Below are positions 8,579-51,218 of a stretch of DNA of 64,000 nucleotides, in pieces. The first letter of the stretch is position 1. Every line of letters begins with the position of its first letter. The translations under genes were made by a program, and so were the position numbers. The notes beneath the pieces are model-generated. The model was not told the DNA's origin, did no database searches, and saw nothing but the letters and a program-made list of their open reading frames with translations. The DNA is from Candidatus Bathyarchaeota archaeon (GTDB taxonomy: Archaea > Thermoproteota > Bathyarchaeia > TCS64): assembly GCA_018396865.1 (NCBI GenBank), contig JAGTRB010000005.1, positions 1-64,000 on the forward strand. Direction: 5' to 3'.

Positions 8579-9787
8579 ATGGAGCCGAGGTTGAGAGAGG
8601 CATTCTCCATGATAGACGGCATGAGGATCCTCGAGCTTGCTAAGAGGCTAATAGAGATCCCCAGCGTCACAGGGGAGGAGTTGAGGGTGGCCCACTACGC
8701 TAAGGAGGTGCTCGAGTCCTCCGGCCTACCAGTCGAGCTCAGGGGCTCAGGGGAGAGGCCCATAGTCCTCTCGAATATAAACCCAGAGAAGTCCCCATAC
8801 ATAGTATTCAACGGCCACCTTGACACGGTTCCGGTTCCGGATCCCTGGGCCTGGACCAGAGACCCCTTCAAGCCCTGGGTTGAAGATGGGAGGCTTTACG
8901 GAAGGGGCTCATCGGATATGAAGGCCTCATGCGCCGTTATCATCCACGCATTGGAGGTTCTGGAGAGGCTGAACCCGAGCTGCTCGGTGGGGATCCAGCT
9001 GGTCCCCGACGAGGAGAGGGGTGGAGGGCAGGGAACCAGGCTCCTGCTGGAGGAGATGATGAAAGGGCAGCTCAGGAAGCCAGACTATGTCGTGATAGGG
9101 GAGAAGAGCAACCTCAAGATCCGGATAGCTGAGAGGGGCCTCTTCCAGTTCCACATAAGGTTCAGGGGGAGGGCTACCCACACCGCCTACGCTAGGGTTG
9201 AGGGGATAAACGCCATAGCCAAGGCCTCGAAGGCTGTCTTATCGCTGGAGAAGGGGATAGATCGATTCCATCCATGGATAGGATACCCGGTCATAAGCGT
9301 GAACACCATAAAGGGAGGGGAGGTCCTTAACCAGGTCCCCGCGGAGTGCATCATCGGTGTGGACAGGAGATTGATAATCGGGGAGACAGCCGAGACGGTG
9401 ATAGCCGAGGTCGAGGAGACTTTGAGGGAGGCTGGAAGGGGAGACCCCGACTGGATTTGGGAGATCCTGGCCGAGAGGGACGAGAGGGGAGGCTACATAT
9501 ATGATCCACCTAACTACACGGATCCGGAGAACGAGCTGGCCAAGGCCTTCCAAAACGCGGTTCGAACAGCGATAGGGGTTGAACCCGAGCTGTTCGTCGA
9601 GTGGGCGGGGGTCACGGACGGCCGATTCTACAGGTACGCCGGCATCCCCACCGTGGGTTTCGGCCCGGTGGGGGAGCACGCCCACGGCCCGGACGAGTTC
9701 GTCTACCTGGACTCCCTAGAGGCACAGGCCAGGGTCTACATAGCCGCGGTGCTGGACCTAGCTGAGAGGGCAAAGAAGAAATTATAA
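8579..9787 (+). CDS. M20-family metallopeptidase (ArgE/DapE-like), second paralog
   Basis: FNGHLDTVPVPDPWAWTRDPFKPWVEDGRLYGRGSSDMKASCAVIIHALE. Confidence 0.85.
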   Translation: MEPRLREAFSMIDGMRILELAKRLIEIPSVTGEELRVAHYAKEVLESSGLPVELRGSGERPIVLSNINPEKSPYIVFNGHLDTVPVPDPWAWTRDPFKPWVEDGRLYGRGSSDMKASCAVIIHALEVLERLNPSCSVGIQLVPDEERGGGQGTRLLLEEMMKGQLRKPDYVVIGEKSNLKIRIAERGLFQFHIRFRGRATHTAYARVEGINAIAKASKAVLSLEKGIDRFHPWIGYPVISVNTIKGGEVLNQVPAECIIGVDRRLIIGETAETVIAEVEETLREAGRGDPDWIWEILAERDERGGYIYDPPNYTDPENELAKAFQNAVRTAIGVEPELFVEWAGVTDGRFYRYAGIPTVGFGPVGEHAHGPDEFVYLDSLEAQARVYIAAVLDLAERAKKKL

Positions 9788-9836
9788 CCGGGGCGGGAGT
9801 ACCCTAAAACCTCTATTCAAAACAGAATGTATAGCC

Positions 9837-12192: not shown

Positions 12193-12699
12193 TTAAGTTG
12201 CTCTATATATCCTGATCCTTTTCTTCAGAGCCATGGATACTGGTATTCCGACTATGCCAGCGACGGCCATTTGAACCATATTGAAGGGGAGTTCCACGAA
12301 GGCGCCAGCCCCATAACCCAAGATAGAGTACTCCACCACGAAGTAGCCTGTCACCATAACCGTCCCGCCAGCCAGCCAAGCTAGGAGAATCATCAATCGC
12401 CCTCTCTCCTTCCACCTGGAGTAGATCCATCCAGCCAATAACCCTTCAAGCCCCTTTATAACGAGGGTATATGGTGCGAAGAAGGAGTAGCCCATTATGA
12501 TATCCGCCAGCGATGAGCCTATCCCCCCGGCAGCAGCTCCGACTAAGGGGCCGAAGGTCAGGGCCGCCACCATAACCATTGCATCCCCCACATTGAAGTA
12601 TCCCTGCGTTGCAGGTATGGGTACGATTATGAAGATCGTAGCGACGCAGACAAGGGCAGCCATTATCGAGGATGCGGCAAGGCCACCTGCTCTCATCAT
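12193..12699 (-). CDS. ECF-transporter S-component-like membrane protein
   Basis: 168 aa with 5-6 TM segments, and IVPIPATQGYFNVGDAMVMVAALTFGPLVGAAAG, which is typical of ECF substrate-capture subunits. No ECF T or A components are nearby. Confidence 0.55.
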   Translation of the reverse strand: MMRAGGLAASSIMAALVCVATIFIIVPIPATQGYFNVGDAMVMVAALTFGPLVGAAAGGIGSSLADIIMGYSFFAPYTLVIKGLEGLLAGWIYSRWKERGRLMILLAWLAGGTVMVTGYFVVEYSILGYGAGAFVELPFNMVQMAVAGIVGIPVSMALKKRIRIYRAT

Positions 12700-12848
12700 A
12701 TTCTAGTTATGACTAGAATATTTAAATCTAGGCATCACTAACATGCACCACCCGGCAATAAGCGTTCGAAAGAACCCTCGACTAGAAGGAGAGCCCCTCT
12801 CTGTAGAAGAATCTTTTAAGTTCTTTTACGATTTAACTTGATAAAAAG

Positions 12849-13553
12849 ATGGGAGAAGTTCCCCAAAGGGGTTTCCCTAGTGATCGGTTGTGGGAGGAGA
12901 AGGAGCCGGAGAAGGGTTTAGGGAGAAGGGACGAGAGAGAGCTCAGGAACAGGTTCTTCTCAAAGCTGATCAGGGCCGGGATTATAATAAATACACACAT
13001 AATCTCGGAGTACTCCGATAAATACCTGGAGCTTGCGAGGAGGTTCAGGGAATTAGATCGAGAGGATGCCAAGTGGATGGCATCGGCGGAGATCGATGCC
13101 CTAGCTGATAAGATAACCTCCCAGCTGAGCCGAATAGTTAGGAGGCCTAGAGCCCCAGTCTCAGTCGCCCCGCCCCCGAGGGTTGCTGGGAGGCCCTCCC
13201 CCGTCTGGGCCCCCCCATACAGGTATAAGGGGGAGGATGAGGATTCGGGGAAGGCCATAATAGACTTCTCCCCTGAGGAGTTCGCATTATACAAGGATTT
13301 CTTGATCAGGAAGGGGTTCAAACCTGAACGAATAGAGAAGATCTCTCCATACAGTAGAAATCTTCCATACTATAAGGAATTCTACGAGTGGATGACATCA
13401 AGAGAGATAGAGCCTAGATTAAAAAATATGTTTGAAAAATGGCTCTGGAGAGCTAGAGGACTAAGAATCCAAGATTATAATGATCTACCGGAAGAACTTA
13501 AAAAGATAATAAGAGCAGCTTTCAGAGAATTCCATAAAATAATAGAGCCCTAA
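12849..13553 (+). CDS. Hypothetical protein (234 aa)
   Basis: Preferred over the low-complexity antisense ORF 12833-13321. The C-terminal third is encoded by AT-rich DNA. Confidence 0.45.
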   Translation: MGEVPQRGFPSDRLWEEKEPEKGLGRRDERELRNRFFSKLIRAGIIINTHIISEYSDKYLELARRFRELDREDAKWMASAEIDALADKITSQLSRIVRRPRAPVSVAPPPRVAGRPSPVWAPPYRYKGEDEDSGKAIIDFSPEEFALYKDFLIRKGFKPERIEKISPYSRNLPYYKEFYEWMTSREIEPRLKNMFEKWLWRARGLRIQDYNDLPEELKKIIRAAFREFHKIIEP

Positions 13554-13721
13554 ACATAAACATTTAAAAATAGAGATATATCAAAGTTTTCATGCAAATA
13601 TTATCTATAGTTAAATATCCCTAGAAAGTCAATGAGGGAGATCCTGAATTCTAAAGATCAATAATTTACAGGAATTTTACAGAAAAATTTAAATATAGAA
13701 TTTATCTTTATATTTAATGTA

Positions 13722-13913
13722 ATGAAAACTGTATATAGACTTGGAGTCATAGTCTTCCTCCTTCTCGGAATCTCAACCTTTATACCTGCTCCGGCAAGCA
13801 AACCATCCCTACTCGGGTATTATGCTCACTGCTCTATAACCCCAGTAAGCACGATAATTCTCTTGGTCATAGCTGGACTGATATACTGGCTCGGAAAGAG
13901 AAGAGAAAAATAA
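13722..13913 (+). CDS. Hypothetical small two-TM membrane protein (63 aa)
   Basis: Two hydrophobic helices and a C-terminal KRREK. Sits in an AT-rich intergenic region; weak call. Confidence 0.3.
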   Translation: MKTVYRLGVIVFLLLGISTFIPAPASKPSLLGYYAHCSITPVSTIILLVIAGLIYWLGKRREK

Positions 13914-13971
13914 ATTTTTTTAAGATATGTTTTATATTTTCTAATTTTTTCTCAACGCTTCATTTAAGCTT

Positions 13972-15744
13972 TCAGACATAGTAGTATCTTCCCTCCCTCT
14001 TCTGCTCACGGTCGAGCTTCGAGCCTTCCTTGTTTACCCTAGGCCTCTTCGTGTCCTGGTCTCTCCTGAAGGTTACCCCCATCTCCTTGAGGAAGGTGTT
14101 CATCCCCTCCTCGAGTCCCTGGGGCCTTCCACCCAGCCCCCTGAGGCCGCTCTGCCCAGTGAATACCATCAGCCTGTCGGCTATGAAGTCCTGGGCCACT
14201 ATGTCGTGCTCCACGACTATCGCTGTGGAGCCGTTCATCTTGGTTATCCTCCTTATGGCCCGGGCCATGGAGAGGCGCTCCTCGACATCTAGGTAGGCGC
14301 TAGGCTCGTCTAAGAGGTAGATATCTGCCTCTGTGGAGAGGCATCTGGCTATGGCCACGCGCTGGAGTTCCCCCCCGCTCAGGTCCTCCACACCCCTCTC
14401 CAGAAGCCTCTTTAGGTTTAGGGGCTCAATGACCTCCGCAGCGAACCAGTTCTCCTCATATCTCCTCCCCGCAGCCCCCTTCAGAATGTCTTCAACCCTC
14501 CCCTCCATCGTGCCCGTGAGGTACTGAGGCTTATAGCTCATCTTCACCTCTCCGCAGATAACCGAGCCATAATCCGGGGTCTCCAGCCCTGCAAGCATCT
14601 TCACGAAGGTCGTCTTTCCAACCCCGTTCTTCCCCAGCACCCCTATCACCTCTCCCTCCCCTATCTCCCCAGGTTCGACGTTGAGGGTGAAATTCCCGTA
14701 GGATTTCCTCAGCTCAGACCACCTCAGCAGGGGCCTCGATCTGGCCGGGGGCTGCGTTGGAGGCTTCACGTGGAAGGCTATGGGGGCCTCCCTGAAGCGG
14801 ATGTTCTCGTCAGGTATGTAGCCCCTGATGTAGATGTTTATTCCCTCCCTAACCCCATGAACCTTCGAGACTATCCCGTAGACGCCCGGCTCGCCGTAGA
14901 AGAGGAATATGTCGTCTGAGAGGTAATCTAGAACAGCTAGATCATGCTCCGCGACGAGTACCATCTTCCCCTCCAATGTTAGGGTCCTGATAACCTTGGC
15001 CGCGTTCATCCGCTGGTAGATGTCCAAGTGGCTTGAGGGCTCGTCGAAGAGGTACACATCGGCCTCCCTGCAGGCTGCAGCCGCTATGGCCACTCGTTGA
15101 AGCTCACCTCCGCTGAGGACGTCGAAGCTCCTCTCTAGGAGCCCCTCTAGCTCAAGGGCCTCAACCATCACCTTGAGGGCTCCCCTCTCGTCGAGCCTGC
15201 TGAGGACCTCCCCGACCCTTCCAGAGACGGCCTTAGGGATGAGGTCAACGTACTGGGGCTTATACACCGCCCTCATCCTCTTCTCGTATATATCCATGAG
15301 ATAATCGTGGAGGGGGAGCCCTGCGAAGCTCCTCAATATCTCATCCCTGCTTGGGGGGTTTGAGAATGATCCTAGGTTAGGAGTAACCTCTCCAGAGAGG
15401 ATCCTCAATGCCAGGGTCTTCCCCATCCCGTTTCTTCCAAGGAGGCCCACAACCGCACCTCTCCTGGGTGTGGGGAGCCTGTATAGGGCGAAGGTGTTGG
15501 GGCCGAACCTATGGATCAGGTCGGAGCCCAGCTCGTCGGGGAGGTTCACAACCTTCAGGGCCTGGAAGGGGCATTTTCTGACGCATATGCCGCAGCCGCT
15601 GCAGAGGGGCTCGGCCACGTAGGCCCTACCCCCCTCCACCCTTATAGCCTCCCTCCTGCTCCGGACCATGGGGCAGAATCGGACGCAGACCATGTCGCAC
15701 TTATCAGGCCTGCATCTCTCCTCCTCGACTACAGCGACCCTCAA
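13972..15744 (-). CDS. abcE1: ABCE1 (RNase L inhibitor / ribosome recycling factor): 2x[4Fe-4S] plus twin ABC ATPase
   Basis: N-terminal CRPDKCDMVCVRFCP...CSGCGICVRKCP ferredoxin motifs, followed by two Walker A/B ABC cassettes with LSGGELQRVAIA signatures. Confidence 0.95.
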   Translation of the reverse strand: MRVAVVEEERCRPDKCDMVCVRFCPMVRSRREAIRVEGGRAYVAEPLCSGCGICVRKCPFQALKVVNLPDELGSDLIHRFGPNTFALYRLPTPRRGAVVGLLGRNGMGKTLALRILSGEVTPNLGSFSNPPSRDEILRSFAGLPLHDYLMDIYEKRMRAVYKPQYVDLIPKAVSGRVGEVLSRLDERGALKVMVEALELEGLLERSFDVLSGGELQRVAIAAAACREADVYLFDEPSSHLDIYQRMNAAKVIRTLTLEGKMVLVAEHDLAVLDYLSDDIFLFYGEPGVYGIVSKVHGVREGINIYIRGYIPDENIRFREAPIAFHVKPPTQPPARSRPLLRWSELRKSYGNFTLNVEPGEIGEGEVIGVLGKNGVGKTTFVKMLAGLETPDYGSVICGEVKMSYKPQYLTGTMEGRVEDILKGAAGRRYEENWFAAEVIEPLNLKRLLERGVEDLSGGELQRVAIARCLSTEADIYLLDEPSAYLDVEERLSMARAIRRITKMNGSTAIVVEHDIVAQDFIADRLMVFTGQSGLRGLGGRPQGLEEGMNTFLKEMGVTFRRDQDTKRPRVNKEGSKLDREQKREGRYYYV

Positions 15745-18064: not shown

Positions 18065-18507
18065 CTACTTACACCGACTTAACCATTCTGCTATATATCT
18101 GGAGAATATCTCAAAATCTGATATCTTTGTTTGTGGAAATTCGTAGACGAGGTCTATATTTATGGATGCATACTCTTGGACGAGGAGATTTCGGAATCCT
18201 ATCATTGAAGCCATTACAATTTCAAAATTCTCCGGGATTATGCCGGCCTCCGCCAGGATGCTTAGGATATCTCCGTAGCTTTCAGGCCTTTAAGTTGGAG
18301 CTGAGATGATCTCATTGCCGATATCTAGATGCACTCGATGGAAACCTGAAGATACCTTTCAGCTGCTCCACTAATTATAAAATCTGCTTTGAAATCTTTC
18401 AAAGAGGTTTTTCGAATATCTTTAAAATATTTTATACACTGTTTAAGTTTACTTAATTTTGTCGTTATTAATTTTTTATCTATTTCAGAATTTGCTTCAT
18501 CATACAT
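18065..18507 (-). pseudogene. Disrupted HEPN (DUF86/HepT-like) toxin gene: in-frame TAG, frameshift, and R-x4-6-H degraded to Q
   Basis: ...AERYLQVSIECI, then TAG, then IGNEIIS; a frameshift, then ...IVMASMIGFRNLLVQEYASINIDLVYEF, which is the DUF86 C-terminal motif with His replaced by Gln. AT-rich DNA. Confidence 0.65.
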
Positions 18508-18546
18508 TCATCATACCTCTCTATGGCTCTTCTAAAATCCAAATAT

Positions 18547-18903
18547 TCACAATTTAACTATTATAGATTTCGCCTCAAAATTTATTCTTGATCCTTCACT
18601 TCTGCAATAAATAACTTCACCATTTTTTATTATCTGAAATTTCAGCAGAGTGGAGCGAGATTAATAATAGTTAAATCTACATTATTTCCAACCATTCCAG
18701 TAAGCATATCAACAATATGTAAATAATATTCAAGAAGTTTTTGGGACTTCAGAAAGTAAGATAGCTATGTCAATGTCACTTTGAGAAGTTTGACCTCCTC
18801 TTAAATAGGATGCAAAAAGATAGGCAACTAAAACACTTTCCTCATTTTCGAATAGCTTCCTAAGCTTTTTTATAACCTCTTCCAGCATATTACATTCAAC
18901 CAT
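18547..18903 (-). pseudogene. Disrupted minimal nucleotidyltransferase (MNT) antitoxin gene with two frameshifts
   Basis: Reverse-strand translation gives MVECNMLEEVIKKLRKLFENEESVLVAYLFASYLRGGQTSQSDIDIAIL, the GS...SDIDIAI NTase motif. The reading then continues only after two frame changes (LEYYLHIVDMLTGMVGNNVDLTIINL... / ...KFQIIKNGEVIYCRSEGSRINFEAKSIIV). Confidence 0.6.
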
Positions 18904-18966: not shown

Positions 18967-19728
18967 CTAGAAGATTAGAGATAGGCATGTCAGGGCGCCC
19001 TCACACTTCTCAAACTCGGTCATGGATAGGGGGATCACCTCAAACCCAGCCTCCCTAACAATCTCATGAGTTTTAGGGTAACCATCCGGCATTAGAACCG
19101 TCTCCCCTATGGTTAGGGTGTTAGCAGCGTACGCCTCTTCATCTGGAACTGTTAAAACCCTGAACCCCTCAAGCACTGGATTGTGGGCGTAGGACCTTGT
19201 AGCAATCATCATTCCCTCTCCTAGATATGTCACATAGCTCTTCAAATGAACAATCTTCGGATCTATTATGGTGTCAACACGAACCTCGAGCCACTCCCTC
19301 ATCTGGTCAACTCCCTCCACATTGGTTCGCTCAGTGACCCCGCTGATCAGCCGGTCCTCAAGGTGAATAACATCCCCTCCCTCCACTGTGGCCGGGGGAG
19401 TAGCCCTCTTAACCCTCAGATAACCCTTAAGAAACTCCTCCACCGCCTCTTCCTCGCCCCTCCTGCTCTCCCTAGCCATCCTGCAGATAAGCGCCCTATC
19501 CCCATGTATGACCGCGTTATCCTCAACGAAGCAGGAATCGGGTAGTAGATCATCTCTAGGAAGATGGATCACCTCAAGCCCGAGCTCGCTCAGAGCCCTA
19601 CAATATTTCCTGTGCTGCTCCCGGGCAAGCTTAAGATCGATCATATGTCTAAGGGGATGAGAGGATATGCATCTCCCATAACTATTCCCGGGCTCCCTAA
19701 CCAACGCACGCCTGAAGGTCAAATTCAA
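18967..19728 (-). CDS. Dimethylarginine dimethylaminohydrolase (DDAH)-like amidinotransferase-superfamily enzyme
   Basis: Overall DDAH-like sequence, with the C-terminal catalytic Cys context (EKCEGALTCLSLIF). Confidence 0.7.
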   Translation of the reverse strand: MNLTFRRALVREPGNSYGRCISSHPLRHMIDLKLAREQHRKYCRALSELGLEVIHLPRDDLLPDSCFVEDNAVIHGDRALICRMARESRRGEEEAVEEFLKGYLRVKRATPPATVEGGDVIHLEDRLISGVTERTNVEGVDQMREWLEVRVDTIIDPKIVHLKSYVTYLGEGMMIATRSYAHNPVLEGFRVLTVPDEEAYAANTLTIGETVLMPDGYPKTHEIVREAGFEVIPLSMTEFEKCEGALTCLSLIF

Positions 19729-19908: not shown

Positions 19909-19983
19909 GGGCCCGTAGCCGAGCTTGGATAAGGCACCGGCCTCCGGAGCCGGAGAACATGGGTTCGAGTCCCATCGGGCCCG
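19909..19983 (+). tRNA. tRNA-Arg (anticodon CCG)
   Basis: Acceptor GGGCCCG/CGGGCCC, anticodon stem ccggc/gccgg with loop cuCCGga, T-arm gggttcgagtccc. CCA is encoded at 19984-19986. Confidence 0.85.
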
Positions 19984-19996
19984 CCATTTCATTAGT

Positions 19997-20623
19997 TCAA
20001 TAAAATTTATAATCCCTCTCTCTTGAATTTGAGAACTGGATTACCATACATGTTGGCTTAGGAGGATAATAAGTACAATATGCGTCTATTGGCATTATAT
20101 TACCAAAATTATACACATCACGTGTTGTTCCAGAAACTAGTGTTGAAGTGATTTCACCTAACTTACATTCGCCGGCATGCATAGTAAATTCGGTCGGACA
20201 TATATAAACTGTCCAGTCAAAAGATGCACCAGAGGATAACAAACATGTTGGCCCACAATTACCATTATTAAAACCACATTCATAGTTTACACAGTTTCCA
20301 AATGCGCAAGCCTTACATTGATTGTTCTCACAATAACAGCTAGAAGCTGTGCCAGCACATGGCTTACATTCATCATTAGAGCAATAGCAATTTGTGTTTG
20401 TACCGGCACAAGCTGAATTGTAGTCTTTGCATTCTCCAGAGATACATCTTTGACAGCCAGGACCGCAATCATTGTATCCGTCTTCCCTATTCACACAATT
20501 ACCATTATCATCACACAATTTGCATGTTCCACAACTAATGCCTGGAGCATTTAAACAAGTGCCAAGACTACCACATTGTTTACATGTTTCCATCACATTG
20601 ATTACAATTATATATATCATCAT
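19997..20623 (-). CDS. Cysteine-rich secreted/membrane-anchored protein (~36 Cys) encoded in ~38% GC DNA
   Basis: The ORF extends to 20752; likely starts are M at 20623 (MMIYIIVINV signal-like) or 20593 (METCKQCG...). Repetitive CxxC/Cx(3-6)C spacing: CKQCGSLGTC, CGTCKLCDDNGNC, CYCSNDECKPCAGTASSCYCENNQCKAC. Its GC content is far below that of the host. Confidence 0.55.
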   Translation of the reverse strand: MMIYIIVINVMETCKQCGSLGTCLNAPGISCGTCKLCDDNGNCVNREDGYNDCGPGCQRCISGECKDYNSACAGTNTNCYCSNDECKPCAGTASSCYCENNQCKACAFGNCVNYECGFNNGNCGPTCLLSSGASFDWTVYICPTEFTMHAGECKLGEITSTLVSGTTRDVYNFGNIMPIDAYCTYYPPKPTCMVIQFSNSRERDYKFY

Positions 20624-20717
20624 ATATATAATTGTAATCGGGCTAAAGGGTATCGATGATGTATTTGTATGGAGGATTAGGAGAGTTTCATATAACTGGT
20701 TTGTTATGATAATAAAA

Positions 20718-21164
20718 TCAATATGGAAAATCTGAAACATGATATACTTCAATTCTCGGATTTCGAGACTTCACTTTATCAATGAAATCTTTCTTATCCA
20801 AAGAAACTAACATCGAATTATTGTTTAATGCAACTTTAAGATATATTGCGTCTATAGCATAGATGTCATATTCTGAGCATAGGGGGTATGCAGATATACA
20901 AAAAGCCTTGTCACAGTTGACTAAAAGTCTTGGATCGATCATAAGATCAAGCAATTTTTTAGCCTCATCTGCGGCGTCCTTTCCAACCCTCCTCGCTAAG
21001 GTCCCGCAGACCTCCTGGTAGATTATGCTTGGCTCAGTCAAGATGAGGCTATCTGGCACCTTGAGTAATATTTCAAGGCATTTCTCGCTATATATCTCAT
21101 CAGCCTTTAAGGCGGCTAGTAGGATATTAGAATCAAGGGTCAATAACCGACTATTAGGCCTCAT
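20718..21164 (-). CDS. vapC: PIN-domain toxin (VapC)
   Basis: N-terminal LTLDSNILLAAL (first acidic residue), internal D/E positions, and C-terminal SLDKKDF. The internal ATG at 21164 overlaps the upstream vapB by 11 nt. Confidence 0.8.
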   Translation of the reverse strand: MRPNSRLLTLDSNILLAALKADEIYSEKCLEILLKVPDSLILTEPSIIYQEVCGTLARRVGKDAADEAKKLLDLMIDPRLLVNCDKAFCISAYPLCSEYDIYAIDAIYLKVALNNNSMLVSLDKKDFIDKVKSRNPRIEVYHVSDFPY

Positions 21165-21435
21165 GTTTCCTAGATCTTCTCTCCTCCTCGAGCACGGTTG
21201 GGGGGCCAACCCACCTTCTTGAGACAGTCTCCCTGAGCCCTAGAAATCCTTGGATTCCCTTCCTCATCTCCCCCATTCTCTCCTCGCTTAGAATTATCAC
21301 ATCTTTGGAAGAGACAAGCTTAGAGAGGAGTTCGGCCCAGGTCCTACACCCCAACTCCACCTTTAGCCTTTTAAGCTCCTTAAGGACATCTTCGGGCAAG
21401 TTTTTCACGAGTATTGTTGCCAGGCTCTTCACCAT
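21154..21435 (-). CDS. vapB: VapB-like antitoxin (putative DNA-binding N-terminus)
   Basis: Small ORF immediately upstream of, and overlapping, the PIN gene. The N-terminus LVKNLPEDVLKELKRLKVELGCRTWAELLSKL is RHH/CopG-like. Confidence 0.65.
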   Translation of the reverse strand: MVKSLATILVKNLPEDVLKELKRLKVELGCRTWAELLSKLVSSKDVIILSEERMGEMRKGIQGFLGLRETVSRRWVGPPTVLEEERRSRKHEA

Positions 21436-21436
21436 G

Positions 21437-21454
21437 GTAATCTAGATAATCTAG
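21437..21454. promoter_or_regulatory. Tandem 9-bp repeat taatctaga x2 (TCTAGA palindromes) immediately upstream of vapB; candidate operator
   Basis: ggtaatctagataatctagaatat lies directly 5' of the vapB start on the minus strand. Confidence 0.35.
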
Positions 21455-21610
21455 AATATAAAATTTATCGAAATAACTTACCCTTCCCTAGATCGTTCCT
21501 CCCTCCAAACACGACATACTTCAATATTTGGATATAAGACGGCGAACGTCCTTCTCCAACTCAATATTTATAGTCTATAATTATTAATTTTATATAGCGC
21601 TTAATTTTAA

Positions 21611-24600
21611 TTATCTTTTTATGTTTATATCTCCTTCTTGGATGATTAGGTTTCCCTCTCTGAGTAAACCTCCAAGGATCTTCTCTAACTCCTCCTTGAT
21701 GCTCCTCGTGAGCTTCTTGAATCCGAATAATCGGGCCGTCTCCTTGATTAGTGCCTCTCTTCCCACTCCTATAGAATGGCCCGCTAGTAGGGTGATGGCG
21801 GCCCTCAACTCTTCTGGAGGTATGAACCTCAATGGCCTGAAGGATTCCTCTAGACCATCGGATGGGACTCTTATCTTCACCTCCATCGGCCACCTAGCCC
21901 AGAGGAAGTCACCCTTTATCACGAGGCTGCCCTTCCTATGAAGCCCCCTCGCCTCCTCCATGAAGGCATCCTTCAACTCATCCGAGAGCTTAGCGAGACC
22001 CAAAGCCCTTTTTATGCGGATGTATGCATGCTCGAGGTGGATGGGCCCATCCCTTTCCACTAGGGTAGGGAGCAGCTCCCTAACCCTCTCACGATATTGT
22101 TGGACCAACTCCCCCTTATCTTGGGTTTTCCCCTTTCCGGCGATACGCCTAGCTTTGAGCCTTGTTGGCCGGTATGTCTCAACCCCCGGCAGACTAGATC
22201 CTGCTGCCTCCAAAACCCTTACCTGGATGCTTCTTTTAGGGGGGGATATACTCGGCGGTGTGTTGGGCTTACCGACAATCCTTCCACGTGGCTGTAGAGA
22301 CCTCTCGATGGCTGACTTCAGCCTTTTAACCTCGGTCTCCCTCCTTTGAACCCAGTCCGGGGACCAGATCCTGTGTATCCTCCATCCCAGCCCTTCCAGT
22401 ATCTGCTGCCTCAGTCGGTCTCTGTCCCTAGCTGTGTACGCGGAGCGGTAGTTCTCTCCATCCAGTAGGATGCCTAGAATGAACCTATCGGGGTTCTTGG
22501 GGTCTTTGACCCCTATGTCAACCTTGAATGAGCTTGGCCCAACGCCTACTACGGCCTCATAGCCCATCCTACCGAGCTCAGATAAGATGTCCTCCTCCAG
22601 TGGATTTGAGGGGCCCTCCTCCCCTTTCTCCGCCTGCTGGTAGGCTTCGGATAGCTTCTCAGCATAAAGGAGGTAGCCGTGTAGGTGGTGAACCCCTGGG
22701 GCCTTTGTGGCCTCAACCTCAATATCTGAGGCCTTTATTGAGCTCACCAGGATGACCCTCTCCCTGGCCCTGGTTATAGCGACATTTAGTCTCCTCTCAC
22801 CCCCAGGCTTGTTCAGGGGCCCGAAGTTTAGCGTCATGCGGCCATTATGATCATAGCCGTAGCCGACGCTGAAGATTATCACGTCGCGCTCATCGCCCAT
22901 CACGTTCTCGAGGTTCTTCACAAAGAATCCCTGGAGGCGGTCCTCGACGAAGAAGGCCTCATATTCAGGGTGATCCCTGAGCCTTCGCTCTATAGCATCT
23001 TGAATAGTGTTCATCTGGCTTATGTTGAATGTTATGACTCCTAGAGTCTTGTCAGGGAAGTTTTTGAAGTGCTCGAAGACGAGGTCCGCTACCACCTCGG
23101 CCTCTCTGGGATTGTTCCTGGCTCCACCCCGGTCATAGATTCCATCTGGAACATAGATGAACTTGACGCCGAGGCTCGGGTCCCTCCTCCCCGGATGGGG
23201 GAATAGGTTCAGCCTATTCTCGTAGAACCTCTCGTTTGAGAAGTTTATCAGGGAGTCATGTCTGCTTCTATAATGCCATCTCAACATATTCACAGGCAAC
23301 CCTATTGATAGGCACTCATCCAAGACGCTCTCGAATACATCGAAATCGTAGTCGACAGTCTCATCCCAGTCGAAGTCCTCGTCCAAAGAGTACTGGAAGA
23401 ATGGGGTCGGAGGGAGCTGCTTGTTGTCGCCAGCCACGATCAGCTGTTCCCCCCTGTAGATGGCTCCCACCGCGTCCTCCGTGCATATCTGGGAGGCCTC
23501 ATCGAAGATCACCAGGTCGAAGCGGAGCTTTGGAGAGAGGAACTGGCTCACAGATATGGGGCTCATGAGGAGGCAGGGTTTAAGCCTCTTGAGGAGGGTC
23601 GGGATCCTCTCGAAGAGGTTTCGGATAGGCATGTGTCGGCTCTTCTTCAGGGCCTCCCTCCTCAGTATGGCTATCTCGGAGTCCGGGACCTGGAGGAAGA
23701 CCCCCTGGGGCTTCTGCTCGTTGGCTCTATCGATGACGCGGGAGGCCGAGAGGGCTATGAACCTCTGGTCTAGATCCTGAAACTCCCTGATCAGCTGTTC
23801 ATGCCTCTGCCCCCTGAAGCCTCCTAGGGTAGGCTCCTCTTGGAAGACGAGGTCGATGAGGCCGCTGTACATGGACTTATGGAACAGATCTAGCAGCCTT
23901 GAGGCCTCAGGCCTAAGCTCCATGAGCCTCTTCAGGAATCCTCCGAGCCCATTCCCCTCCAGGTCCGCCGTGATCCTCTTGAAATCTACCCAGGCTTGGA
24001 GTTCATCCAACCTGGAGCGTAGCTCCGAGACCTTCAGCCTGATCTCCTCAAGGGTTAGGGCGCTCCTATCCTTATCCCATAGGGGTTGAGTGAAGCCGTC
24101 TTCGAGGGTTTTCAGCAGGTCGTAGAGCCTATCCAGCCTTGCGCCTATCTCAGGATCAGGAGGTGTGGGGAACCCTCCATCCGAGACGTAGGCTATGAGG
24201 GGTTGTGGAGGCTCCCTTAGGATGCTTAATAGCCTCTTACACCAATCTATATCCTCAAGTATAGAGGGCCAATCCGTCGTTATTCCTGTATATCGCCTAC
24301 CGAAGATGGCTTTAATATCCTCAGACTCTGCCTCAGCAGCCTCCTCAAAGGCTCGGAGGGCCTCCACCTCCCTCAAGTCGGATACGAGCTCCATCAGGGA
24401 GTGGGGGTGGTCCGAGATCCTCAAGGATAATGCTGGAGTGCATACCTCATTCAGCGAGGTGAGCCTTCTAGCCAGCTCAGATGACCATTCTGCCACCAAG
24501 TCAAGGGGACTCTTTGTAAGAGGCTTACCCGTGTTTGGAAGCTTCCCATAAGGTAGGAGCCCCCTCAGCTTTAGGGTTCTCTGCCTCCACTCGCTAAGGG

Positions 24601-27166
24601 CTGCTCTGAGCCTCCTCCCAGTGAGTAAAAGCTCCTCTGAGGGCCTACTTCCAGCTGTGAGGTTGAGGACTACCCCCGGAGGGATCTGTCTTCGTGTTAT
24701 CTTGAGGGCCTTCCAGGCGTTCTTCAAGGCCTCCCTGGCTGAGTTGAAGTCGGGGGTGGGATCCCTGTAATATGACTTCATAACCCTCCTGAGGTCTTCT
24801 CGACGGGAGGCTATCTCCTGCTCAAGGGTCCTCAGCTCCTTAACGGCCTTTAGATCCTCTAAAATCCTGCTCAGAGGCTCCCGGCTTCTGCTCATCCTTG
24901 TGAGGAGGCTCCTGAACCTGTGGTACTGGGGTCTAAGGTATCTGAATGGGGAGCTACCCGGCCCCTCAAGCCAATCTATTATTGGTTGTGGATCTAGGTT
25001 CAGAAACCCCTCGTGATATCTTTCCATCAGGTCCTTTTTCAGGCCATCCCTTCGGAGATATAACCCCTCAGCCTCCCTGATCATCCTCGTCACCTCTTTC
25101 AGGCTTTTTATGTCAAGCCACTCAGCCTCTGGCCTGTTTTTAGCCTCGCAGATGCTTGTAAGCTCGGCCATTCTAACTATCTTCTCTATCGAGTCGATCT
25201 CGACCTGGAGGCCGAATATCCCCGCTATCTCAGCTGCGTGGGATTTCCAATCCTCAATCCATCCGGGCAGGGCCTCCACGTATTGGGCCAACTCTTCATT
25301 AAGCCTTGTGAGGGCTACATCGTCTTCTGTGTTCGGGGGTAATAGCTCCTTTACCCTCGCCCATCTCCTCTCAACCTCATCCGCGACCCCCCTCGGAAGC
25401 CTGAATATACTTGGGCTGTATAGCTTCATCAGCCTATCCCTAGACCTCCAATACTCAGCGTAGCCCTCAAGCCTCTTCAGGGCCTCCTCTTCTATCCCTT
25501 TCAGTCCTCCCCCCTCAAGCCACCTTCTTGGAGGCCTCGGAGAGCTCGAAACTAGGGTGGAGATCTCCTTCAACCTCTCAAACTCCCCAAGGATGCTGGG
25601 GATGCCTAGACCCAGCATCTCGCTGTAACCTTTGATGCCCTCCAGCTCCTCAACAGCCTCGAGGATCTGCCCGAGGAGGGTCGCCCATCTGGAGCGGGAT
25701 TCAGAGGTGAAATCCTCCTCCCTGCATCCCCTCCATGGAAACCTCCCATCTAATGCGATATACCACACATTTGAGAGGTCTCTCACCAATTTCTCCAGTT
25801 CTTGGAGCTTCCGGGGGGTGAGGGATTTGAGTCCCTGATACTCCGACGGGATGAATGGAGCATCCTCAAGCCTGGCAAGCCTCCCGAGGAGTTCGAAGGC
25901 TGAGAGCCCGAGGGGGGGCCTCTCCATGTGCAGGGCCCTCACATACCTGTTGAGGAGGTCCCTCCTCTCCTTTAGCCTCTCCAGCTCCTCCTCGGAAAGC
26001 CTAGCCCTTGGCTTCAGGTGCTCGTTCAGTGCTCTATTGAGTTCCGCGACCACCTCCCTCTTATTCGCCTTATGGCTGTGGAGCTCTAGGCAGAAGTCGT
26101 CGAGCCCCCTCTCTTTTAGCCTGTTGTAGACCACCTCTAGCGCAGCCATCTTCTCGCTTACGAATAGGACGCTCCTCCCAGCGGCTATGAACTCGGATAT
26201 GATGTTGGCAATCGTCTGGCTCTTCCCCGTGCCTGGGGGGCCGTGGATGACGAAGGACTGCCCCCTCAAAGCGTACTGGATGCAGAGCTGCTGGCTGCTG
26301 TCTGCGTCGAGAACTTGGAACATCCTCTTGGGCTCAAGTATCTCATCAAGCTCATCCTCCTTAGGTAGGGGATCCTTAACCAGTCTGGGGTTTGGCACAC
26401 CAGCTAGGGCGGATATGATTTGGTTCTTAGCTATCTCCTCGGCGTTCTCGGATAGGTCTTGATACATCACCAGCTTGTAAAAAGAGAATAGCCCAATCCC
26501 TACCTCCCCCTCCACCCTCCATCCCAGCTCCCCGCAAACGGCTGAAACTTCTTGAAGGTAGGTGAGGACATCCACATCCTCGAAGTCCGGGAGGGGTGGA
26601 AGCTCGAACTTGTAGTCATACCTCAGTTTGAGGGTTAAGGCAGGATTCAGGACCACCTCCTCCTCCACGGGGGGAACCTCTATTCTATAGGGTGAGCGGG
26701 GGTTATCCCTCCTCAACTCTATTGGAACTAGGAGTATTGGAGATCTTACTGCCTCCCCCGACCCGGCCTCCCTCCAGTTGAGCATCCCAAAGGTTATGTA
26801 GAGGATCCTGACGCCCCTCTCCCTATATTCAGATGTGGACCGCCTATAGAGACTCCTCAGGATCCGCTCAATCCATTGAGGGTCATCTCCATGGGGCACG
26901 AGTTGGGTCTTCCCGGGGCGCATGGACCCTGAAGGACCGGTCCATCCATCCTTTGGAGGCTGCCAGATCTCCCACCCCTTCCCTTTGACAACTAGCCTCT
27001 CGAAGATGGTCTTGAGGTCTGGAGCCAATATCTCGATATAGGAGCTCTTTGTTGGCGCGAAGTAGATCAGGCGGTTCCGCCTGCTCAGGTCGATGAGCCT
27101 CTGCTTCCACAGCTGGATTCTTTCCATTACCTTGGAAGTGGAGGCCTCATCCAAATCGATCAGCAA
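21611..27166 (-). CDS. 1851-aa DUF4011-like N-domain / Upf1-like SF1 helicase with ~800-aa insert / Vsr(DUF559)-like endonuclease / DUF3320-like C-terminus
   Basis: Walker A VIHGPPGTGKSQT. Motif II VIFDEASQ roughly 800 aa later. Then LRWHYRSRH, GVITFN, and motif VI LNVAITRARERVILVSS. Then FKVDIGVKD...FILGILLDGENYRS...RDRDRLRQQILEGLGWRIHRIWSPDW (PD-(D/E)xK/Vsr-like). The C-terminus is ...GDFLWARWP...FGFKKLT. The N-terminal region (LIYFAPT...ILYITFGMLNW) is DUF4011-like. The start may be the M at 27127. Confidence 0.85.
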   Translation of the reverse strand: MLIDLDEASTSKVMERIQLWKQRLIDLSRRNRLIYFAPTKSSYIEILAPDLKTIFERLVVKGKGWEIWQPPKDGWTGPSGSMRPGKTQLVPHGDDPQWIERILRSLYRRSTSEYRERGVRILYITFGMLNWREAGSGEAVRSPILLVPIELRRDNPRSPYRIEVPPVEEEVVLNPALTLKLRYDYKFELPPLPDFEDVDVLTYLQEVSAVCGELGWRVEGEVGIGLFSFYKLVMYQDLSENAEEIAKNQIISALAGVPNPRLVKDPLPKEDELDEILEPKRMFQVLDADSSQQLCIQYALRGQSFVIHGPPGTGKSQTIANIISEFIAAGRSVLFVSEKMAALEVVYNRLKERGLDDFCLELHSHKANKREVVAELNRALNEHLKPRARLSEEELERLKERRDLLNRYVRALHMERPPLGLSAFELLGRLARLEDAPFIPSEYQGLKSLTPRKLQELEKLVRDLSNVWYIALDGRFPWRGCREEDFTSESRSRWATLLGQILEAVEELEGIKGYSEMLGLGIPSILGEFERLKEISTLVSSSPRPPRRWLEGGGLKGIEEEALKRLEGYAEYWRSRDRLMKLYSPSIFRLPRGVADEVERRWARVKELLPPNTEDDVALTRLNEELAQYVEALPGWIEDWKSHAAEIAGIFGLQVEIDSIEKIVRMAELTSICEAKNRPEAEWLDIKSLKEVTRMIREAEGLYLRRDGLKKDLMERYHEGFLNLDPQPIIDWLEGPGSSPFRYLRPQYHRFRSLLTRMSRSREPLSRILEDLKAVKELRTLEQEIASRREDLRRVMKSYYRDPTPDFNSAREALKNAWKALKITRRQIPPGVVLNLTAGSRPSEELLLTGRRLRAALSEWRQRTLKLRGLLPYGKLPNTGKPLTKSPLDLVAEWSSELARRLTSLNEVCTPALSLRISDHPHSLMELVSDLREVEALRAFEEAAEAESEDIKAIFGRRYTGITTDWPSILEDIDWCKRLLSILREPPQPLIAYVSDGGFPTPPDPEIGARLDRLYDLLKTLEDGFTQPLWDKDRSALTLEEIRLKVSELRSRLDELQAWVDFKRITADLEGNGLGGFLKRLMELRPEASRLLDLFHKSMYSGLIDLVFQEEPTLGGFRGQRHEQLIREFQDLDQRFIALSASRVIDRANEQKPQGVFLQVPDSEIAILRREALKKSRHMPIRNLFERIPTLLKRLKPCLLMSPISVSQFLSPKLRFDLVIFDEASQICTEDAVGAIYRGEQLIVAGDNKQLPPTPFFQYSLDEDFDWDETVDYDFDVFESVLDECLSIGLPVNMLRWHYRSRHDSLINFSNERFYENRLNLFPHPGRRDPSLGVKFIYVPDGIYDRGGARNNPREAEVVADLVFEHFKNFPDKTLGVITFNISQMNTIQDAIERRLRDHPEYEAFFVEDRLQGFFVKNLENVMGDERDVIIFSVGYGYDHNGRMTLNFGPLNKPGGERRLNVAITRARERVILVSSIKASDIEVEATKAPGVHHLHGYLLYAEKLSEAYQQAEKGEEGPSNPLEEDILSELGRMGYEAVVGVGPSSFKVDIGVKDPKNPDRFILGILLDGENYRSAYTARDRDRLRQQILEGLGWRIHRIWSPDWVQRRETEVKRLKSAIERSLQPRGRIVGKPNTPPSISPPKRSIQVRVLEAAGSSLPGVETYRPTRLKARRIAGKGKTQDKGELVQQYRERVRELLPTLVERDGPIHLEHAYIRIKRALGLAKLSDELKDAFMEEARGLHRKGSLVIKGDFLWARWPMEVKIRVPSDGLEESFRPLRFIPPEELRAAITLLAGHSIGVGREALIKETARLFGFKKLTRSIKEELEKILGGLLREGNLIIQEGDINIKR

Positions 27167-37699: not shown

Positions 37700-37782
37700 G
37701 CGGGGGTTCCCGAGGGGCCAAAGGGGGCAGGTTCAGGACCTGCTGGATCAGTCCTCCGTGGGTTCGAATCCCACCCCCCGCA
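37700..37782 (+). tRNA. tRNA-Leu (anticodon CAG), long variable arm
   Basis: Acceptor GCGGGGG/CCCCCGC, anticodon stem gcagg/cctgc with loop ttCAGga, variable arm tggatcagtcctccg, T-arm gtgggttcgaatcccac. Confidence 0.8.
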
Positions 37783-37909
37783 CCATTCTGGGGGACAGAT
37801 ATTTCTAAAGCATTATTCTCATGGTACCCTTAATTAAATAAACCTAATTAGGCCTCCGAAAATTCATCATTATGTTTTTTATCTTTTGAGGATGAAATAA
37901 ATGTGGGCG

Positions 37910-38296
37910 TTATTCAATTCCCCATTTTTTGGTTACCTTAACTAATATAAAGACCACAAAGGCTACAAGTAGGAAGGTGATCAAGGCTCCTATGAAGTGC
38001 CCTATGCGGAACGGTCCCAGCACAAAGGCCTCCCATTGAATACCCGGCAGAATTAGCGTTATTATGGGCATGATCAGGTCGTTAACTAGTGCCTGTACAA
38101 GTGTGCCCAGATATAAGCCCAGGATGAACGCGACGGCCATTCCCATAACCTTGTACTTTGAGATGAAGTCCAGAAACTCGTTCCAGAGGCCTTTTGGTGG
38201 AGGTGGGGGTGGAGGTGCGGGTTTAGGCTCTAGTAAAGCCTTTATATCCTTTAGAACCTCCAGTATCTCCTCATCTCTAGTTCTTGATCTAGACAT
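37910..38296 (-). CDS. mscL: Large-conductance mechanosensitive channel MscL-like protein with Pro-rich N-terminal extension
   Basis: KVMGMAVAFILGLYLGTLVQALVNDLIMPIITLILPG...ALITFLLVAFVVFILVK follows the MscL TM1-loop-TM2 pattern. It is preceded by PAPPPPPPPKG. Confidence 0.65.
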   Translation of the reverse strand: MSRSRTRDEEILEVLKDIKALLEPKPAPPPPPPPKGLWNEFLDFISKYKVMGMAVAFILGLYLGTLVQALVNDLIMPIITLILPGIQWEAFVLGPFRIGHFIGALITFLLVAFVVFILVKVTKKWGIE

Positions 38297-38551
38297 ACCC
38301 TTTCCATATCTAAGAAGAAGTAAGCTTATTTAATCTTTACGAGCATAAGCAGCCCAACACGGTTATGTGAGAGATTCAAGAAACATGAATCGACTAAATG
38401 ATCCTCATAAATTTTTAATTTTCCAGAAGATAGCGTGGGGTTTTAATCATTTTTGTCAACACTCCGCCCTTTAAACTAAAAATGATACCTTGTATCCCAC
38501 GTCCAACTCAATATTTATATAATGCCTCTTTCCTAAAATGCTGACACAGCT

Positions 38552-39391
38552 ATGATTGACATATTTGGCATTTTAGGAAAGATGCTCGAAAACGTTATCT
38601 ATGCCATTCCGGCCATTATCGCTGCTTTGATAGTGATATTGATAGGATACGCGGTCGGCTCTATAGTTGGCAGGGCTGTAAACAAGATCGTCGAAAAAAT
38701 CGGAATAGAAAAGACATTCGACCAAACTATTGCTGGCAAAGCCTTTAGGGCTTCTGGCATAGACCTCTCCAGTCTAATAGGGGGATTAGTCAAAGCCTTC
38801 ATTTTGATGTTATCCTTAATTATGGCGGTACAGATATTGAACATCCCAGGGATATTTGGCACTTACTTGATGAATCTAGCAGACTATCTTCCAAGACTTC
38901 TTGGAGGTATCTTGATAATATTATTAGGAACAGTGTTCGTCGACTTCCTCTCAACCTTTATTGGTAGGATGATCCGGCCGATGTTTCCAGCTGAGAAAAT
39001 TGAAATAGCAGATATGCTGAAGAACCTGCTTTTCATCGGGTTAATCGCCTTCGTTCTCCTGTTAGCACTCGATACTATGCTTCTTTCGGGTAGCACAGTT
39101 TATCCGCTGATACTCGGCTTTGTAGCGATTGGCGCAGGCATATCCTTGACAGATGGCCTAATAAAATCAATAACGGATGATCATCCTGAGTTCAGGGAGA
39201 TCGCGGGATATGCGAAATTTATGCTTTACAGCATTTTCCTAATGATAGGAGCAAGTGCAATATTCGCAACATACCCAGGCGTAACTGAAATTATAGCTAA
39301 TGCTTCATGGGCCTTTGCAATAGCTCTCGCAGTAATGCTAATACCCATTGCATATACTTTAATGAAAAAGATATCAAAGGAAACAAAATAA
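38552..39391 (+). CDS. Polytopic membrane protein, function unknown
   Basis: 6-7 TM helices. A possible resemblance to the conserved TM-helix repeat proteins of MscS-like families is a weak impression. Confidence 0.5.
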   Translation: MIDIFGILGKMLENVIYAIPAIIAALIVILIGYAVGSIVGRAVNKIVEKIGIEKTFDQTIAGKAFRASGIDLSSLIGGLVKAFILMLSLIMAVQILNIPGIFGTYLMNLADYLPRLLGGILIILLGTVFVDFLSTFIGRMIRPMFPAEKIEIADMLKNLLFIGLIAFVLLLALDTMLLSGSTVYPLILGFVAIGAGISLTDGLIKSITDDHPEFREIAGYAKFMLYSIFLMIGASAIFATYPGVTEIIANASWAFAIALAVMLIPIAYTLMKKISKETK

Positions 39392-39644
39392 GTCATGAAC
39401 AACTACCCTAAACCCATTTTTATAAGAGTATTTTTATATTTAATATTTTTCTCAATAATGGTTATTTATAGTTAAACTATAATGAGTAATGAAAAAAGGA
39501 AATTAAGATAATGGTAAGAAGGAGAAAAGTTTTTAAATACGAAGAACCCGATTAACAATCGGGTTTTCGATTCTGAAGAATAAAAACGAGAAAGGTAGGT
39601 TTTATAAAAAGGAGATGAGACCCTTTCATTAGTTCCTAGATCTT

Positions 39645-40049
39645 TCAGTATTCTACCTTTCTAGGAAGGCTCTTTGCTTGTTCAATCCAATTTTTGACTT
39701 GGTTGAGCGTGGGCGGTCTCCTTACAAGTTTTTTCTCATTGTTCACTTCAATTATCTTAGCATAGAGATTCTCGGGAACCCTTTTAGCTAGTTCAACCAC
39801 CGAATCCACACCGGCCTCCTCGAGGAGGTCTGAATATTCTTCACCCACCCCCTTGATCCTGAAAAGGTCTGCAAGGTTCACCCATTCGAGGATCAATTTT
39901 TCAGAGATACCGGTCTTCTCTGAGAGCTCCTTCCTCCCCTTTCTAGTTGCACCTGCGTTAAGCAGATCATCTGTGGTCTTTATACCGACTTCGAGAAGCT
40001 TATTAGCGTATACTGGTCCAATCCCCTCAATCTTCTCTATCTTTGCCAT
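39645..40049 (-). CDS. Helix-hairpin-helix protein (DUF4332-like)
   Basis: IEGIGPVYANKLLEVGIKTTDDLL and IKGVGEEYSDLLEEAGVDSVVELA are two HhH units. Confidence 0.6.
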   Translation of the reverse strand: MAKIEKIEGIGPVYANKLLEVGIKTTDDLLNAGATRKGRKELSEKTGISEKLILEWVNLADLFRIKGVGEEYSDLLEEAGVDSVVELAKRVPENLYAKIIEVNNEKKLVRRPPTLNQVKNWIEQAKSLPRKVEY

Positions 40050-40297
40050 GTCAATCCGCGATCAAAATTTAAAAATTCTAATATATATCCTTTTCCATGT
40101 TAACATTAAATCTGAGCAAAAACTCTCCAACTGGATGGGTAATCTTAAAAGTTATGAGGGACCTTCCTAAGGTCTAGCTTTGAATCAATGTTTCCAAGTT
40201 AAAAGTCATTTTAACAAGATCGATCTCAATTTTTCAAATTGGAAATAAAATTGTCATAATTCGCATCTGTTCTAATGATGTTGACGGTCCCAAGATC

Positions 40298-51158: not shown

Positions 51159-51218
51159 TCTGACACCTCTAATATATTCACGGAACTCGATTTAAAGATC
51201 TTGAACTCTTCCGGAACC

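Follow-up and report, generated by a model that had tools for sequence, protein, structure and literature searches.

Among the archaeal genomic islands and integrative elements that target tRNA genes are the SSV-type and pNOB8-type integrase elements, and toxin-antitoxin (TA) modules of the VapBC kind, in which a PIN-domain toxin is paired with an upstream antitoxin of the ribbon-helix-helix (RHH) or AbrB type, are abundant in archaeal chromosomes. Here, we describe an AT-rich islet of 1.6 kb (19987–21610) in a 64,000-nt stretch of DNA from a Candidatus Bathyarchaeota archaeon (assembly GCA_018396865.1, contig JAGTRB010000005.1, positions 1 to 64,000 of the forward strand), referred to in the following as the window. 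The islet carries a vapBC pair and a cysteine-rich open reading frame (ORF). It is probably a horizontally acquired, strain-variable mini-island, located between the 3′ end of a tRNA-Arg(CCG) gene and the stop codon of a helicase gene and composed of vapBC plus the fused remnant of two Cys-rich surface-protein genes. As such it belongs to an ordinary class, namely that of the small TA-bearing islets at tRNA-flanked hotspots.

With the SSV-type and pNOB8-type elements the islet shares the location at a tRNA 3′ end, the atypical composition, the presence or absence among relatives and the possession of an addiction module. In contrast to them it lacks both an integrase and an attL/attR duplication of the tRNA end, the spacer at its site was replaced, and its length is only 1.6 kb, or at least 4.2 kb in conspecific strains. 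The comparison with hypervariable intergenic hotspots, i.e. with defence and TA islets, rests on the varying cargo at one and the same spot (empty; vapBC with Cys-rich genes; an unrelated insert of 1.17 kb) and on the neighbours, which are a PDC-S37/Hhe-like defence helicase and an MNT/HepT module. Unlike in those islets, the cargo consists by length mostly of Cys-rich surface-protein genes and not of defence genes, and no mobility gene was identified.

The tRNA-Arg gene (anticodon CCG), which forms one boundary of the islet, extends from 19909 to 19986 on the plus strand and encodes its CCA (ARAGORN; Rfam RF00005, 66.2 bits). Directly after this CCA the GC content drops, amounting to 38.7% for 19987–21610 and to 36% for 19987–20717, compared with a median of 53.9% for the 51 long ORFs of the window. 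The islet contains three minus-strand ORFs, the Cys-rich ORF, vapC and vapB, of which the latter two overlap by 11 nt. An initial annotation of this DNA had described an AT-rich stretch of 1.6 kb 3′ of the tRNA-Arg with three minus-strand genes, among them an overlapping VapB/VapC pair, and both statements were confirmed. The GC content at third codon positions (GC3) has a median of 0.64 with a standard deviation (SD) of 0.09 over the same 51 ORFs; the Cys-rich ORF shows the lowest value of all, 0.25–0.28, about 4 SD below the median, and vapC with 0.40 is likewise a compositional outlier. Between vapB and the helicase gene lies an AT-rich region (21436–21610, minus strand, 31% GC), in which the promoter/operator of vapBC is presumed to be located. 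The islet is one of several low-GC patches in the window, the others being found at 12.5–14 kb, 18.0–18.9 kb, 38–40 kb and 51–52 kb, yet it holds the most extreme ORF.

For the comparison with related species the adjacent gene of the DDAH/amidinotransferase family (18967–19728, minus strand; Pfam ADI/DDAH, NCBIfam dimethylargininase below cutoff) served as synteny anchor, and 79 related loci were retrieved from species-representative genomes. In 3 of these 79 loci the tRNA-Arg(CCG) is kept beside DDAH. Two of them, L003 (JAGTQJ010000008) and L078 (CALIUM010000005), represent the two closest species found, and the third, L004, a more distant relative; the tRNA sequence is identical to that of the window in L003 and L078 and shows 98.7% identity in L004. 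The DDAH-family proteins of L003 and L078 are 89% and 86% identical to that of the window. The other boundary of the islet is formed by a helicase-nuclease gene of 1851 aa (21611–27166, minus strand), which comprises DUF4011, an SF1 helicase (AAA_11/AAA_12), an MTES_1575 REase-like domain and DUF3320 according to Pfam. It is syntenic in all three relatives with identities of 87% (L003), 88% (L078) and 78% (L004). The order of the genes in L003 and L078 is that of the window, i.e. AIR-synthase-like, H+-PPase, helicase of 1851–1852 aa, tRNA-Arg(CCG) and DDAH. The islet is absent from both, and the distance from the helicase stop to the tRNA is only about 250 nt. Nucleotide homology between the window and these two loci ends at 21608–21589, about 0 to 20 nt past the helicase stop, and resumes at 19988, so that it stops at both ends of the islet.

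The spacer of L003 and L078 (250 nt, 32–36% GC) is 88% identical between both species, and no remnants of it were found within the islet past about 20 nt after the helicase stop. As this spacer has no counterpart in the window, the islet replaced the spacer and did not interrupt it. In L004 the same spot between helicase and tRNA-Arg is occupied by a different insert (positions 8664–9832 of that locus; 1.17 kb, 47% GC) with small ORFs, two of which were tested and gave no Pfam match; this different insert shows the spacer between helicase and tRNA-Arg to be a recurrent insertion site. Relatives of VapB, VapC or the Cys-rich protein were detected neither within ±10 kb of DDAH in the 79 related loci nor elsewhere in the window. 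The islet thus shows both presence/absence polymorphism among close relatives and atypical composition, and the horizontal acquisition proposed in the initial annotation is supported by the syntenic relatives, with an empty site in L003 and L078 and another insert in L004. None of the related genomes compared has these genes with the same composition at this locus, which the initial annotation had named as the refuting observation.

In conspecific assemblies, whose identity to the window is 99.3–99.8% over more than 10 kb on each side, a longer form of the island was found. Seven helicase-side contigs, namely L001 from an NCBI metagenome-assembled genome (MAG) and six Logan assemblies of different runs, agree with the window as far as 20273, beyond which they diverge. 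Two tRNA-side contigs (L093, from the MAG that also contains L001, and L095) agree with it as far as 20238 before they diverge, and their diverged parts are 99.86% identical to each other. Since there is no overlap between the unshared tails (1168 nt and 1416 nt), the island in its usual form must contain at least 2.6 kb more than the window form, which results in a total length of at least 4.2 kb. The cargo of this long form comprises vapBC, a Cys-rich gene of 434 aa (gene 1), pieces of the genes Y and W on the other strand, and gene Z beside the tRNA. For gene Y the 3′ end and for gene W the 5′ 237 codons were recovered, and both pieces may belong to one gene. No Pfam match was obtained for either of them, gene W retrieved only itself among 5.8 billion proteins, and the GC content of the Y/W DNA is 22–30% (L093 1–790; L082 11815–12105). 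Gene Z, a second Cys-rich gene, is frameshifted, its sequence being spread over three reading frames in two independent MAGs. All assemblies other than that of the window break off within the island.

Against this background the Cys-rich ORF of the window (19997–20752, minus strand; 251 aa from a TTG, 247 aa from the ATG at 20740, 198 aa from the ATG at 20593) appears as a chimera of two paralogous genes. Its codons through …NYECG stem from gene 1; the corresponding segment (20273–20593, minus strand) represents the 5′ part of that gene, holds the conserved Cys module and ends at the very position at which the seven helicase-side contigs diverge. The last 80 codons (19997–20238, minus strand) are a 3′ fragment of gene Z and end at the point of divergence of L093 and L095. 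Both segments are connected by a window-specific joint of about 35 nt (20239–20272, minus strand; FNNGNCGPTCLL), which matches neither parent contig and keeps the frame. Judged from these alignments, the window form appears to be a deletion derivative that has lost at least 2.6 kb and in which the 5′ part of gene 1 continues in frame into the 3′ fragment of gene Z. The simplest reading of the chimera would be a deletion between paralogous Cys-module sequences.

The TA module is encoded by vapC (20718–21164, minus strand), whose product is a PIN-domain toxin of 148 aa (Pfam PIN, PF01850; E = 2e-10, 41.7 bits vs a cutoff of 23.6), and by vapB (21154–21435, minus strand), the gene of a 93-aa antitoxin candidate whose pairing with the toxin is conserved. 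All four acidic residues of VapC (D11, E44, D105, D123) are present, and in an alignment of 14 family members D11, E44 and D123 are invariant and D105 nearly so. The relatives of VapC form about 400 clusters with identities of 66–81%, all of them about 148 aa long, and those with a name are labelled as Bathyarchaeota/Bathyarchaeia, Thermoproteota or Nitrososphaerales. In every context examined, including L090–92 and L103–108, a gene of 90–94 aa, 63–78% identical to VapB, precedes and overlaps the PIN gene, the overlap being 11–14 nt across the family. The neighbourhoods vary, ranging from a polysaccharide cluster with MNT/HepT and HEPN/MNT modules to positions downstream of iPGM or beside a cupin gene, and such variation suggests the behaviour of a mobile TA cassette.

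In analogy to described type II VapBC modules, the pair thus combines a PIN protein with four acidic residues and a small overlapping upstream gene which always co-occurs with it, and the module is found in unrelated chromosomal contexts, often beside other TA modules. It differs from them in the antitoxin, for which no significant match to RHH/AbrB models or solved VapB structures was obtained, and in the toxin, which lies outside the NCBIfam and PADLOC models, belongs to an unusually conserved family and has a predicted activity. For VapB only a weak FitA-like RHH match below the Pfam cutoff was found (E = 0.011, 16 bits vs a cutoff of 27), and a search of the PDB with the VapB profile yielded nothing significant, the second-ranked entry being 3h87_C (‘putative uncharacterized protein’) with E = 0.56. 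The VapC sequence gave no match in the PDB, and no NCBIfam or PADLOC model matched it. Taken as a whole, the PIN toxin domain and the operon architecture assign the pair to VapBC, with VapB as the antitoxin candidate and toxicity as a prediction.

The GC content of the vapBC family tracks that of the host contig, with 0.41 in a contig of 0.40 and 0.55/0.49 in a contig of 0.58, and the lower GC content in the second half of vapC recurs across the family, including the host with 58% GC. Measured against this, the vapBC genes of the window (0.50/0.39) are only mildly atypical. Probably they came from a related archaeon or have been resident for longer than the Cys-rich DNA. A direct repeat of 27 nt brackets vapBC, one copy lying in the conserved 3′ coding end of vapC (20735–20761) and the other within the AT-rich region 72 nt upstream of vapB (21507–21533); both are identical at 22 of 27 positions, and the score was reached by 4 of 500 shuffles. 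The repeat was rejected as a possible insertion scar, as the score is marginal, the downstream copy belongs to the conserved coding sequence of vapC and the resemblance ends with the repeat itself. It is probably due to chance, or else could be the relic of a former vapC 3′ end. A scan for bacterial-type promoters and terminators remained at background level, the underlying model being bacterial and not applicable to archaea.

Starting from METCKQ, the Cys-rich ORF contains 28 Cys in 198 aa. The initial annotation had named its product a Cys-rich secreted protein; the first part of this name is appropriate, whereas the ORF appears to be a chimeric deletion product and its secretion is a prediction. 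No match was found in Pfam, NCBIfam or PADLOC, and neither the protein P0001 nor the module in the homologues matched a curated domain family (Pfam/NCBIfam). Only 2 close homologues of the window ORF exist among 5.8 billion proteins, and when the long form was used as query in a HMMER search of all 1.84 billion representatives, 35 remote homologues were returned. The core which is invariant across the alignments reads C-x2-C-x2-C...DGYNDCGxGCQRCxSGxCxDYNxAC...C-x2-D-x-C. Among the homologues there are N-terminal signal peptides or transmembrane segments, a C-terminal anchor, and domains of the PKD, fn3, Ig-like, InlB-B-repeat or peptidoglycan-binding type; clear signal peptides are present in P0131, P0133, P0135, P0136 and P0138, and the contig of one homologue carries bacterial NusA, trigger factor and ClpP genes. 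From the extracellular domains and signal peptides it follows that the module is extracellular in the relatives, which lends indirect support to a secretion of the protein of the window.

After the METCKQ start no canonical signal peptide follows. The ORF remains open for 53 codons upstream of this Met, in DNA with 27% GC, and if the upstream TTG or ATG is used, residues 36–54 form a hydrophobic segment (Kyte-Doolittle 2.06) that would be compatible with a membrane anchor. A repeat search revealed an AT-rich, perfect palindrome of 18+18 nt with a 4-nt loop (20600–20639), 7 nt upstream of the METCKQ ATG, whose arms GATTACAATTATATATAT and ATATATATAATTGTAATC show 3 mismatches in conspecific strains. 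This palindrome may be a TATA-rich promoter/operator, or it may be part of the sequence that codes for the hydrophobic segment. Upon translation of the longer ORF it would encode the near-palindromic peptide IIYMMIYII. The AlphaFold model of the Cys module has a low confidence (pLDDT, the predicted local distance difference test, of 64), and a Foldseek search of the PDB with this model gave nothing significant (best E = 2.3, template modelling score <0.25); LDLa and EGF-like modules were among the matches, and no fold was assigned. Features in common with EGF-like and LDL-receptor class A modules are the high Cys density, a predicted stack of beta-hairpins and the presence in multi-domain secreted proteins. 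The Cys module differs from them in that it has no sequence-family match, and the fold matches, obtained with the pLDDT 64 model, are non-significant.

With respect to marks of mobility, no second copy of the tRNA-Arg 3′ end (26 nt and 16 nt) was found in the 64 kb at ≤3 mismatches. No integrase was present among the Pfam-annotated genes on conspecific contigs covering 8.3–31.2 kb of the window, i.e. about 10 kb on each side, or among the islet ORFs (Pfam). Hence the initial annotation was right in reporting neither an att-like duplicate of the tRNA end nor an integrase nearby. Viral hallmarks were not found among the annotated neighbours and islet genes. A scan of JGI metagenomes with the tRNA-Arg 3′ half gave no match. 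A viral origin was considered and rejected, as a scan of IMG/VR with the long Cys-rich protein found no relative. The islet begins after the CCA with no duplication of the tRNA end, and the ancestral spacer is replaced. In the absence of both a target duplication and an integrase, an entry by recombination anchored in the flanks or by illegitimate insertion is preferred over an active site-specific element, the route of entry being the least certain step of our account.

The islet is composed of two parts of different origin, the vapBC operon and the very AT-rich Cys-rich DNA (GC3 about 0.25), and it is partly pseudogenised. According to the explanation we propose, it would have been acquired at a hotspot that has the tRNA on one side and the 3′ end of the helicase gene on the other, thereby replacing the ancestral spacer of about 250 nt. 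The DNA would have entered through recombination with the conserved flanks as anchors or through illegitimate insertion, followed by decay; alternatively, it may have entered as an integrative element which later lost its integrase. VapB would bind and neutralise the PIN ribonuclease VapC and repress the operon, and upon loss of VapB the toxin would cleave RNA and cause growth arrest. As an addiction or stress module vapBC might slow the loss of the island, or it might contribute to stress or abortive-infection responses. The Cys-rich genes would be surface-protein cargo that undergoes duplication, frameshifting and deletion.

Among the flanking genes, the helicase matches the PADLOC candidate defence model PDC-S37 with 1391 bits and Hhe with E = 2e-164. 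These defence matches, together with the synteny in three related species, indicate that the islet adjoins a probable single-gene defence system. Beyond DDAH, as seen from the islet, a 34% GC patch (18325–18903, minus strand) holds the decayed remnants of an MNT (57 aa) and a HepT (60 aa) gene. At the same position the pair is intact in L078 (10775–11673) and MNT is intact in L003 (10804–11247). This AT-rich TA module dates back to the ancestor of the group and is being eroded in the species of the window. Farther away, a tRNA-Leu(CAG) gene (37700–37785) is followed by a low-GC patch (39–42%) that reaches to 40100 and encodes MscL, an MscS-like channel protein and a DUF4332/HHH protein; the region 37700–40100 is a candidate for a second tRNA-flanked islet. 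A low GC content of about 40% is also found in the patches at 12500–14000, where the ORF at 12849–13553 has no Pfam match, and at 51000–52000. Several AT-rich inserts thus make a mosaic of the genome.

Several observations weigh against the acquisition of a strain-variable mini-island as set out above. The MNT/HepT module is AT-rich and yet syntenic across species, so that low GC content alone is no proof of a recent gain. vapB, with 50% GC and a GC3 of 0.61, is host-like and no outlier; of the foreign codon usage which the initial annotation had attributed to all three genes, only that of the Cys-rich ORF and vapC was verified. The membership of VapB in a known antitoxin class finds no significant match in curated RHH/AbrB models or solved structures. 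The direction of the change, gain here or loss in the lineage of L003 and L078, is based on parsimony and composition and not on a resolved phylogeny, and the homology of the spacers of L003 and L078 means that one loss could explain both. An integrase or att site may lie in the middle of the long island, which none of the contigs covers. Finally, the joint at 20239–20272 is absent from all 108 fetched loci and from the JGI metagenome contigs, and the short form was seen in this assembly only.

These points bear on three rival explanations to different extents. A decayed tRNA-targeting integrative element, i.e. a provirus or integrative plasmid that entered site-specifically at tRNA-Arg, subsequently lost its integrase and att sites and retained vapBC as addiction module, would explain the position directly 3′ of the tRNA, the atypical composition and the presence/absence polymorphism. 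The 22–30% GC DNA of the long form with the orphan genes W and Y is typical mobile-element cargo, and integrase-encoding viruses of Bathyarchaeia are known (PMC10848311). We nevertheless consider this origin unlikely, as no integrase or viral hallmark among the annotated genes, no att-like tRNA repeat in the 64 kb and no relative among the IMG/VR viral contigs was found, the insert begins behind the CCA and takes the place of the old spacer with the tRNA end left unduplicated, and the vapBC family occurs elsewhere as a stand-alone chromosomal cassette. An assembly artefact, in which two paralogous Cys-rich genes were collapsed, at least 2.6 kb were dropped and a chimeric ORF arose that exists in no cell, is in our estimation rather improbable. 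About 35 nt of the joint match neither parent contig, which is unexpected for a simple join on a shared repeat, the frame is preserved and both flanks are in the expected syntenic order. Such an artefact would nevertheless be in line with the breaks of all other assemblies inside the island, with the repeated Cys-module sequence common to both genes (repeat D8) and with a joint found nowhere else. An ancestral AT-rich region, which was deleted in the lineage of L003 and L078 and replaced in L004, and whose low GC content results from local constraints (TA modules, Cys/Asn/Tyr-rich coding), is very improbable. Here, these genes are missing from the outgroup L004 and from every other DDAH-anchored locus, the GC3 of 0.25–0.28 and the host median are about 4 SD apart, pseudogenisation and structural variation at the strain level point to a region of turnover, and homologues of the Cys-rich protein are extremely rare, one of them lying on the contig with bacterial genes (NusA, trigger factor, ClpP). 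An ancestral region would be consistent with the AT-rich MNT/HepT module, which is syntenic in L003 and L078 and decaying in the window, with the host-like GC3 of vapB, with the lower GC content of the second vapC half, which is typical of the family and occurs in the host with 58% GC as well, and with the one spacer common to L003 and L078, for which a single loss could suffice.

Acquisition of a mini-island by horizontal transfer is therefore the reading that we retain. A wider interpretation, which we offer as speculative and somewhat doubtful, would be that the Cys module defines an undescribed extracellular domain family (about 35 clusters per 1.84 billion representatives) and arrived on very AT-rich DNA from a low-GC, possibly bacterial donor resembling the candidate phyla radiation (CPR). 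The spacer would then be an integrase-independent hotspot of cassette exchange beside a defence helicase, at which surface-protein genes are gained, duplicated, recombined and lost at the strain level.

For the genome biology of this uncultivated archaeal class the locus provides a clean and small case of genome flux, in which one spot is empty, holds an island of TA and surface-protein genes, or carries unrelated cargo. Even within the species the length of the island differs, the window form being shorter than that of other assemblies. The locus also calls for caution, as composition alone is misleading (vapB looks native, whereas the syntenic MNT/HepT module looks foreign), an apparently intact ORF may be the fusion of two decaying paralogues, and assemblies tend to break inside such islands. 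The Cys-rich module and the very conserved family of 148-aa VapC proteins represent modest leads for domain annotation.

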